Assembly: GCF_988243305.1 (NCBI RefSeq)
Contig: NZ_OZ547136.1
DNA length: 64,000 nt
Strand: one strand, 5' to 3'
The position numbers and the translations under genes are program-made. Shown here in pieces: positions 992 to 3,337 of this stretch. Numbering within the stretch: position 1 is the first letter of the stretch; every line of letters begins with the position of its first letter. The notes below the pieces were generated by a model. It had not been told where the DNA came from. It ran no database searches and saw nothing but the letters and a program-made list of their open reading frames with translations.

Positions 992-3337
992 TCAGGAATG
1001 TACCTCCTGCAACAGTTTCATAATCTCAGCGCTTACCGCATCCAAATCAGCATCAATCTCCTCCAACGGTCGCGGCGGTGTATAAACATAAAAATGACGA
1101 TTAAACGGAATTTCATACCCCACAATCCCGATATCCCCATCTTTCGCATCGCGTTTATCGGCATTGATCCACGCATCCGCAACATGCGGCAATACTTCCG
1201 CTTTGAAGTAATCCTCGATCAACTCGTTGGTAGATACCGCCGGATTTAACGGCACATTCTCGTTATCACGCAGGTCGCCATCCGATTCAAACTCCACAAC
1301 CTTTCCGTGGTACTCAAACGCGCCGTACAGCGGTTGGGGCGCTTCTTTCAGAACCTTGCTGATTACCGGCTCGGCGTCCGGGTTTTTGCGGGTGATAGCA
1401 TCGATAAACTGCTTGTTCTCTTTCGCATCCAGCTTCACGCCTGCGGTTCTGAGCGCCTCTTTCAGCGTCAACTGGAACTGATTAAAGTCATTGCTAACAG
1501 TCTCTTTGCCACCCGCCAGCATCCTCATCGCTGCCTGAATACGCCGCGCTTTTTCCATTAACCCGCGCTGGGCCAGCCATAATTTGCTGTCGAGCAGATC
1601 TTTAATTTGCTTCTCTTTCAGCTCGCTAAAATCGGCTTTAAGAATGGCGCGGGCTTCACTTTCTACCGCTGTTAAGTCGCCGTAATTACCGTCCTGCCAC
1701 TGGAAAGCAAAGGCGTCATACAGTTGCGCCATCGGCGCGTTAAACGGCTTCGGCGCAAAGCGCAATGTGGCAATGGCGTCATCACTTATCTGAGCCGACA
1801 GGCGTAACGGGCGCTCAACGGTGATGCGACGATAGCCAAACTCGGTGCTGTGAAAGACTTTGCTGGCAAAGGTTTTTGCCGCCTCGGTTTTGGTTGTTGC
1901 GGGCTGGCGTCCCCGGCTGGATTTTTGTTCGGGTGCTTTCTCCAGGCCTAACGCCGCAAGCGTAGTGGTGGCAACGGGTTCGAAATCGCCAAACGTGCGG
2001 GTGATTAAACCAATATCCTCCTCCCCGAGAATATTACGTTTTGATCCCAGCGATTTACGCATCTTTCCGCACAGGTTGCTGCCGTCGATTAGCTGGACTT
2101 TACCTTTGCGTTCTGGCGCTTTTTTGTTAGACAGCACCCAAACATAGGTAGCGATACCGGTGTTGTAAAACATATCGGTGGGCAGGGCGATAATGCCTTC
2201 CAGCAAATCCGCTTCCAGAATGTAGCGGCGGATCTCGCTTTCACCGCTGCCTGCGCCGCCGGTGAATAACGGCGAACCATTAAGAATGATGCCGATCCGT
2301 CCGCCACCGCTTTTGGCATCGCGCATTTTGCTGATCAGATGCAGCAGAAACAGCAACGAACCGTCGGAGACTCGGGGCAGGCCGGGGCCAAAGCGACCAT
2401 CAGCACCTTTGAGTTTGTGCTCGTTGTTGATGTCGGTTTCTATCTTTTTCCAGTCCACGCCGAAAGGTGGATTAGAGAGCATGTAATCGAATTTTTCTGC
2501 GGGGAGCTGATCGTTGGAAAGGGTGTTGCCGAGTTTGATAAGGCTGACATCCTGGCCCTTAATCAGCATGTCGGCTTTGCAGATGGCGTAGGATTCCGGG
2601 TTTAACTCCTGACCAAACGCGCGCATCACGGCATTGGGGTTTTGTTTGTGGACGTACTCCATGCCGGAGGAGAGAAAGCCGCCGGTTCCCGCCGTTGGGT
2701 CGTAAATGGTGCGAATGATACCGTCTTTATTGAGTGCATCATCATCATCGAAAAACACCAGCGAGGTGGTCAGATTGACGATATCACGCGGGGTAAAGTG
2801 CTCCCCGGCGGTTTCGTTAGAACTCTCGGCAAAACGTCGGATCAGCTCCTCAAATACCAGCCCCATATCGTGGTTGGTGACGTGCTCCGGGTATAAATCT
2901 GCTTTAGCGAATATTTGCACCACTTTGAACAGTAAGTTTGCATCCGCCAGCTGTCCGACAAACTCGCTGAACTTGAAGTGTTCGAAAATTTCGCGGGCAT
3001 CCGAAGAGAACGACTGGATGTAGTTTTCCAGGTTGTCCTGTATGCCATTTTGCCCCATTTTGCTGAGATCCATCGCTGAGGCATTGAAGAACGTGAGGCC
3101 ATTAGTCGCCCGCAGGATCATTTTCTCCTGGGCTTCCTCCGGCAGTTTCATGGCTTTTACTTTTTGCGCCTCGGTAATGACCGCGTCTTTCGTTGTTTCG
3201 AGTACGCATTCCAGACGACGCAAAAGGGTAAAAGGAAGAATAATTCGTCCATATTGTGATTGTTTAAAATCGCCGCGTAACAGGTCGGCGACAGACCACA
3301 GGAAGGCTGCAATCTGGCTGAAATTAGTTGATGACAT
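992..3337 (-). CDS. hsdM: Type I R-M N6-adenine DNA methyltransferase HsdM with a long C-terminal extension (about 781 aa)
   Basis: ORF track 992..3346. HsdM-type N-terminal domain, motif [11 protein letters not shown] and motif IV NPPF. Start placed at the second in-frame ATG (3337), which has AAGGA about 9 nt upstream; the first ATG abuts that SD. The protein is roughly 250 aa longer than a typical ~520-530 aa HsdM. Confidence 0.8.

Follow-up and report, generated by a model that had tools for sequence, protein, structure and literature searches.

Structures of type I modification subunits (HsdM) have been solved for EcoKI, EcoR124I, PacII (M1 and M2), 3LKD and 3KHK. These proteins share an N-terminal and a catalytic domain, the latter with motif I and an NPPF motif; they are 499–544 aa long, and their short tail ends in an amphipathic helix. 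Their partners are an HsdS subunit with two TRDs and an HsdR subunit of the SF2-nuclease kind. In PacII, the two C-terminal tails of the M subunits and two conserved helices of HsdS form a four-helix bundle which is found in both the open and the closed state, and deletion of the tail abolishes the assembly of M1M2S (PMC9613975). The window analysed here, a stretch of DNA of 64,000 nucleotides, encodes an HsdM which resembles the solved proteins in its domains, its motifs, its partners and its amphipathic C-terminal helix, but which is 781 aa long and carries a module of ~140 aa and an insert of 130 aa before this helix. A comparably long protein may belong to KpnBI, the prototype of type IE described by Chin and colleagues in 2004, whose hsdM reportedly measures 2631 bp (~876 aa), precedes hsdS and overlaps it by one base. 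Compared by description only, KpnBI and the window share gene order and the one-base overlap, and their HsdM lengths differ (~876 versus 781 aa). If this is correct, a long HsdM in a characterised system is not new.

The longest hsdM open reading frame in the window extends from 992 to 3346 on the minus strand and corresponds to 784 aa. The start codon at 3337 is preferred over the in-frame ATG at 3346, since an AAGGA element lies 9 nt upstream of it and since RefSeq lists the identical 2346-nt coding sequence (WP_000099603.1, named type I restriction-modification system subunit M); the ATG at 3346 is unlikely to be served by the same element because the spacing is too small. The encoded protein has the domain content of a type I M subunit, namely an HsdM N-terminal domain and a gamma-class N6-adenine methyltransferase (MTase) domain with motif I and NPPF (Table 1), and Foldseek aligns its core to the HsdM structures of PacII, EcoKI and EcoR124I, with E = 1e-23 to the PacII M subunits. 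An earlier note on this DNA had located motif I and NPPF within the first ~300 residues and had described the MTase core as complete by ~450 aa in a reading frame running to ~781 aa. The residue positions in Table 1 bear out both statements, with the Pfam domains ending at residue 458 of 781 codons. The extension of ~250 aa given in the same note is apt as the excess over the solved HsdM proteins (499–544 aa) but too small for the post-catalytic tail, which comprises 323 aa (residues 459–781) because the Pfam N6_Mtase domain ends at residue 458.

Table 1. Positions of hsdM, its domains and tail elements, and the adjoining hsdS in the window.
Feature	HsdM residues	Position	Strand	Basis
hsdS 5′ part, first 330 codons, running off the left end of the window		1..992	(-)	Translation: TRD and central coiled coil
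hsdM coding sequence, 781 codons and TGA stop (992-994)	1-781	992..3337	(-)	Open reading frame; same 2346-nt CDS in RefSeq
Terminal amphipathic helix, putative HsdS binder	758-781	995..1066	(-)	AlphaFold2, heptad pattern, analogy
Block B, beta-rich subdomain	649-757	1067..1393	(-)	Conserved family-wide; dN/dS 0.07
Variable helical insert	519-648	1394..1783	(-)	All helices in AlphaFold2 model
Block A, three beta strands	489-518	1784..1873	(-)	Conserved in every tail class
Basic linker, close relatives only	459-488	1874..1963	(-)	pLDDT ~60-78; gapped in most family members
N6_Mtase catalytic domain	158-458	1964..2866	(-)	Pfam PF02384, E = 7.7e-58
NPPF motif	289-292	2462-2473	(-)	Sequence reading
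Motif I	213-222	2672-2701	(-)	Sequence reading
HsdM_N domain	12-146	2900..3304	(-)	Pfam PF12161, E = 6.7e-27
Shine-Dalgarno-like AAGGA, 9 nt upstream of hsdM ATG 3337		3347..3351	(-)	Sequence reading

The solved HsdM proteins align only to the first 430–460 residues of the window HsdM, and identity in the core amounts to 16–25%. For EcoKI, the structure-based identity is 19–20% (phmmer E 1e-11, core only), and for EcoR124I it is 19–24% (phmmer E 2.5e-25, core only); this low identity rules out an assignment to families IA and IC. Furthermore, the NCBIfam model TIGR00497 reaches 90.6 bits over residues 161–448 only, against a cutoff of 242.75, which places the protein outside the classical hsdM equivalog. 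A relationship to the MADS MAD2 methyltransferase was dismissed on the basis of a score of 53 bits to NF047738 (cutoff 720), and the single-chain enzymes of type IIG, ISP and BREX PglX were dismissed because no nuclease, helicase or TRD domain is present in the open reading frame. Some members of the subfamily described below carry Methylase_S after the same tail and thus represent M~S fusions (“type I 1/2” and related gamma-MTases). In contrast to these fusions, M and S are encoded by separate genes in the window and the tail does not contain a TRD-like fold.

The ATG of hsdS overlaps the hsdM stop codon by one base. The hsdS portion of the window (1–1000) has a G+C content of ~39–40%, as opposed to 50–55% in hsdM, and its translation contains a normal central coiled-coil segment. 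The full HsdS and HsdR were read from a 99%-identical E. coli locus (L001), hsdR being situated outside the window. In addition to hsdM (781 aa), this locus encodes an HsdS of 467 aa with Methylase_S and two TRDs, an HsdR of 1087 aa with HSDR_N, SWI2/SNF2 (SWI2_SNF2) and T1R_D3 domains, and a hypothetical protein of 237 aa. The operon occupies the immigration control region of E. coli, with yjiA and yjiS on either side. In the window, three genes divergent from hsdM (3622–6940, plus strand) fill this region beside yjiA together with hsdMSR, and they encode a 699-aa type IV restriction protein of the GmrSD family (GmrSD_N, GmrSD_C and a C-terminal DUF5655), a 244-aa Fic-family protein with a weak Pfam match only, and a BrnA-like antitoxin without an adjacent BrnT gene.

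The 237-aa protein is encoded 3′ of hsdR (L001 7550–8263) and displays membrane-like hydrophobic segments, with weak matches only, to MscS_TM and DUF898. No homologue of it was detected in 79 other loci of the subfamily, where a protein of the same size in L090 proved unrelated, and a link between the HsdM tail and the membrane-like protein was rejected on this ground. In E. coli UTME-7 (L007, 1–13946), an hsdM allele of 786 aa resides in a different, integrase-flanked island which also has hsdS and hsdR genes of its own, besides genes for an AAA ATPase and a 1274-aa RNA-directed DNA polymerase. Type I operons of the subfamily often have embedded or adjoining defence genes, notably those of the GmrSD family, as in the short-tailed loci L092 and L088; the neighbours of L092 further include a TIR/NB-ARC/TPR protein, an M48 peptidase and HTH regulators.

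The C-terminal tail of HsdM is a real, intact coding sequence under purifying selection. The gene is present in 116 of 5426 complete E. coli genomes (~2%), where every copy is chromosomal, full-length (2346 bp) and free of indels. Among E. coli alleles, dN/dS amounts to 0.10–0.16 in the tail (residues 459–781) versus 0.04–0.065 in the core; in comparison with the 77.5%-identical L007 allele of 786 codons, it is 0.108 in the tail as a whole, 0.18 in the insert, 0.07 in block B and 0.03 in the terminal helix. An AlphaFold2 model of the full-length protein, calculated with 63 family sequences, has a mean pLDDT of 92 and a pTM of 0.87, and the tail exceeds a pLDDT of 90 except in the linker (459–488) and reaches 94 when modelled by itself. 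The suggestion of the earlier note that the extension is not a fused pseudogene is therefore well founded, given 116 intact copies out of 116, low dN/dS in the tail and a confidently predicted fold.

Synonymous divergence among the E. coli hsdM alleles forms a mosaic (window 992–1393 compared with L004, L005, L006 and L008). Relative to the window, L004 reaches a dS of 0.45 over block B plus the terminal helix and 0.07 over the core, and L008 has an identical tail (459–781) and 25 differences in the core. The mosaic points to breakpoints of recombination within the gene, whose 3′ end probably moves together with the hsdS allele. The best match to the window hsdM in the genome collection shows at most 98.9% identity. 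In some genomes, hsdM is interrupted by a frameshift that lies in its low-complexity linker (L095 4437–6798; L094 4457–6816), the break falling within residues 459–488. Gene callers then report tail-only “proteins” of 246–286 aa, and the protein database contains clusters of such tail-length entries. Both tail-only entries inspected were gene calls on frameshifted hsdM, and the idea of a free-standing tail protein was discarded.

To delineate the tail, phmmer searches were run against 1.84 billion representatives and domains were mapped for the best 150 matches, in addition to alignments, which define residues 1–453 as the conserved core of the HsdM family. The tail itself consists of the linker, a conserved beta/alpha module (489–518 and 649–757) which is split by the insert, and a terminal heptad helix. 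The two halves of the module, blocks A and B, are conserved to roughly the same degree as the catalytic domain and flank the insert in every tail class. The strands of block A correspond to residues 489–496, 501–508 and 512–516 of the AlphaFold2 model, and a motif of 13 residues is found here at 1802–1840 (minus strand); block B contains the motif EV.PHV.DAW and a second one of 12 residues (1088–1123). The insert (519–648) shares 12–30% identity with most family representatives and is the fastest-evolving part of HsdM (dN/dS 0.18). In relatives it is either absent, ~85 aa or ~130–165 aa long, with a few longer cases, and the tails fall into discrete length classes of ~102–122, 204–216 and 285–330 aa, few being longer. 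Since the shortest class joins block A nearly directly to block B, as seen in natural members of 566–598 aa, the helical region represents an insertion within a conserved module. Internal repeats are significant (z >3) in the inserts of six out of 47 relatives (z = 9.1 in P0132 and 6.6 in P0140), which suggests that short helical units were duplicated as the insert grew; for the insert of the window HsdM, internal repeats are not significant (z = 1.2). The C-terminal position of HsdM evidently tolerates domain accretion, as close relatives of the core bear other domains there: in P0177 and P0209, whose cores are 45–50% identical, a Schlafen/AlbA_2 domain replaces the tail, and others carry Methylase_S at the C-terminus.

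A domain search of the region beyond ~450 aa, as proposed in the earlier note, yielded no significant Pfam family for residues 459–781, no NCBIfam match to the tail and, in PADLOC, only the MTase_I model PDLC03029. This model covers residues 2–780 of the window HsdM (positions 2–660 of 661) with 931 bits, and the tail alone scores 195.6 bits against it and matches no other PADLOC model. The window HsdM exceeds the 661 positions of the model by ~120 residues because of its linker and its longer helical insert. Neither sequence nor profile searches of the PDB with the tail gave a significant match, and a structural search of the tail revealed neither a solved relative nor a match to a TRD, sensor or effector fold. 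A literature search found no paper describing the long tail of HsdM.

The C-terminal 329 residues (453–781) retrieve 3438 protein clusters. When one genome per species was scanned with patterns derived from the tail, among them the block B motifs, 595 of the 600 listed stretches were confirmed, so that genomes of at least 595 species, spread over many phyla, encode the tail. These include Enterobacterales, Acinetobacter, Pseudomonas, Vibrio, Nitrospirales and Verrucomicrobia as well as Planctomycetes, Chloroflexi, Cyanobacteria, Bacteroidota, Gemmatimonadetes and others. The gene order is hsdM-hsdS-hsdR in every locus with enough flanking sequence, often with 0–4 kb of accessory genes before hsdR. 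Across 62 complete representatives (50%-identity level), HsdM ranges from 566 to 841 aa with a median of ~660 aa, and a length of 761–804 aa is the rule in two diverged clades, one with core scores of ~750–1000 and an HsdR of ~1085 aa, the other with core scores of ~330 and an HsdR of ~1010 aa. The window HsdM is an ordinary member of the long class, and the tail is the normal C-terminal region of its subfamily. Of the possibilities raised in the earlier note, a distinct type I subfamily is supported, as the tail marks a single HsdM cluster (PDLC03029) found in at least 595 species genomes. The same note had held that its case would fall if this length were standard for a well-characterised HsdM subfamily; as regards prevalence the length is indeed largely standard, but the subfamily is not well characterised, having neither a Pfam family nor a solved relative.

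No part of the tail is more constrained than the terminal helix (dN/dS 0.03). In the AlphaFold2 model it forms a single helix (758–780) with a pLDDT >90, and the hydrophobic a/d positions 758, 761, 765, 768, 772, 775/776 and 779, which are spaced by 3–4 residues, are kept in 79–100% of 63 family members. Natural M~S fusions of the long-tailed family have the Methylase_S domain after the tail. Two of them, P0153 and P0171, have matches that extend as far as the terminal helix, and here Methylase_S begins ~20–45 residues past it. In neither sequence nor fold was the tail found to be similar to the C-terminal tails of the solved HsdM proteins; the case for a contact between the helix and HsdS rests on the position of the helix, its heptad pattern and analogy with the PacII bundle. 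On these grounds, we infer that the terminal helix corresponds to the C-terminal helix through which ordinary HsdM proteins bind HsdS. If it is the HsdS anchor, most of the apparent extension would be an insertion between the catalytic domain and this anchor.

The interpretation we favour, with a probability of roughly 70%, is that the protein is the HsdM of a complete canonical type I restriction-modification system and belongs to a long-tailed subfamily in which the terminal helix anchors HsdS and the remainder of the tail has been inserted before it. By analogy, the terminal helix would join the two conserved HsdS helices in a four-helix bundle that holds the M2S1 methylase together. As a guess, the conserved module may determine how the catalytic domain is placed with respect to HsdS and DNA; the helical insert might be a surface arm whose candidate partner is HsdR, DNA or nothing at all. 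An extra dimerisation or regulatory domain, as the earlier note had also considered, finds no support, since the C-terminus resembles an HsdS-binding assembly helix and the rest is the subfamily module with its insert.

A role of the tail in recruiting the motor-nuclease has to be weighed against this interpretation, although the two are compatible: the module, the insert or both could be a docking surface for the cognate HsdR. The clades of HsdR match those of HsdM, with HsdR scores tracking HsdM core scores across loci, and tail length correlates with HsdR length, but this correlation (Spearman 0.51) is confounded by shared ancestry. Moreover, the indels of HsdR (q81–92, q150–162 and q840–875) follow clade and not the length class of the insert, which leaves a co-varying HsdR element unsupported, and distant long-tailed clades are without the same HsdR segments as the short-tailed members are. 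HsdR docking is therefore regarded as possible but rather unlikely. A regulatory, sensing or effector-holding platform, which might detect anti-restriction DNA mimics or sequester an abortive-infection effector, has a precedent in HsdMS complexes which hold the effectors PrrC and RonA (Ronin). The rapid evolution of the insert, the presence of other accessory C-terminal domains such as Schlafen/AlbA_2 on close relatives of the core, and the accessory genes between hsdS and hsdR in many loci would all fit such a platform. However, no accessory gene is consistently tied to the tail, including the 237-aa protein with its absence from the 79 other loci, the dN/dS of 0.18 in the insert indicates purifying selection without the signature of an arms race, and the structural searches of the tail hit neither a sensor nor an effector fold, all of which makes this function improbable.

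Least credible is the reading of the extension as a second gene fused to hsdM or as a degenerate TRD-like specificity domain, which would make the protein an M~S-type fusion or a fusion artefact. True M~S fusions do exist among the relatives, and protein databases do hold tail-only “proteins” of 246–286 aa; but the tail has no match to Methylase_S or any other Pfam family and no structural match to TRDs, despite the many TRDs in the PDB, a full-length hsdS with two TRDs follows hsdM, and the insert lies between conserved blocks in every class. As the tail-only entries inspected were both products of frameshifts, this explanation was rejected.

Both the gene and its long-tailed family are already catalogued, which removes the apparent anomaly and leaves hsdM itself with low novelty. 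Its module nevertheless occurs in the HsdM of at least 595 species without a Pfam family, a solved structure or an assigned role. To our knowledge, structural studies of type I enzymes have been confined to short-tailed HsdM. Any difference in how this subfamily assembles with HsdS and HsdR would become visible in a structure of one of its long-tailed M2S1 or R2M2S1 complexes.
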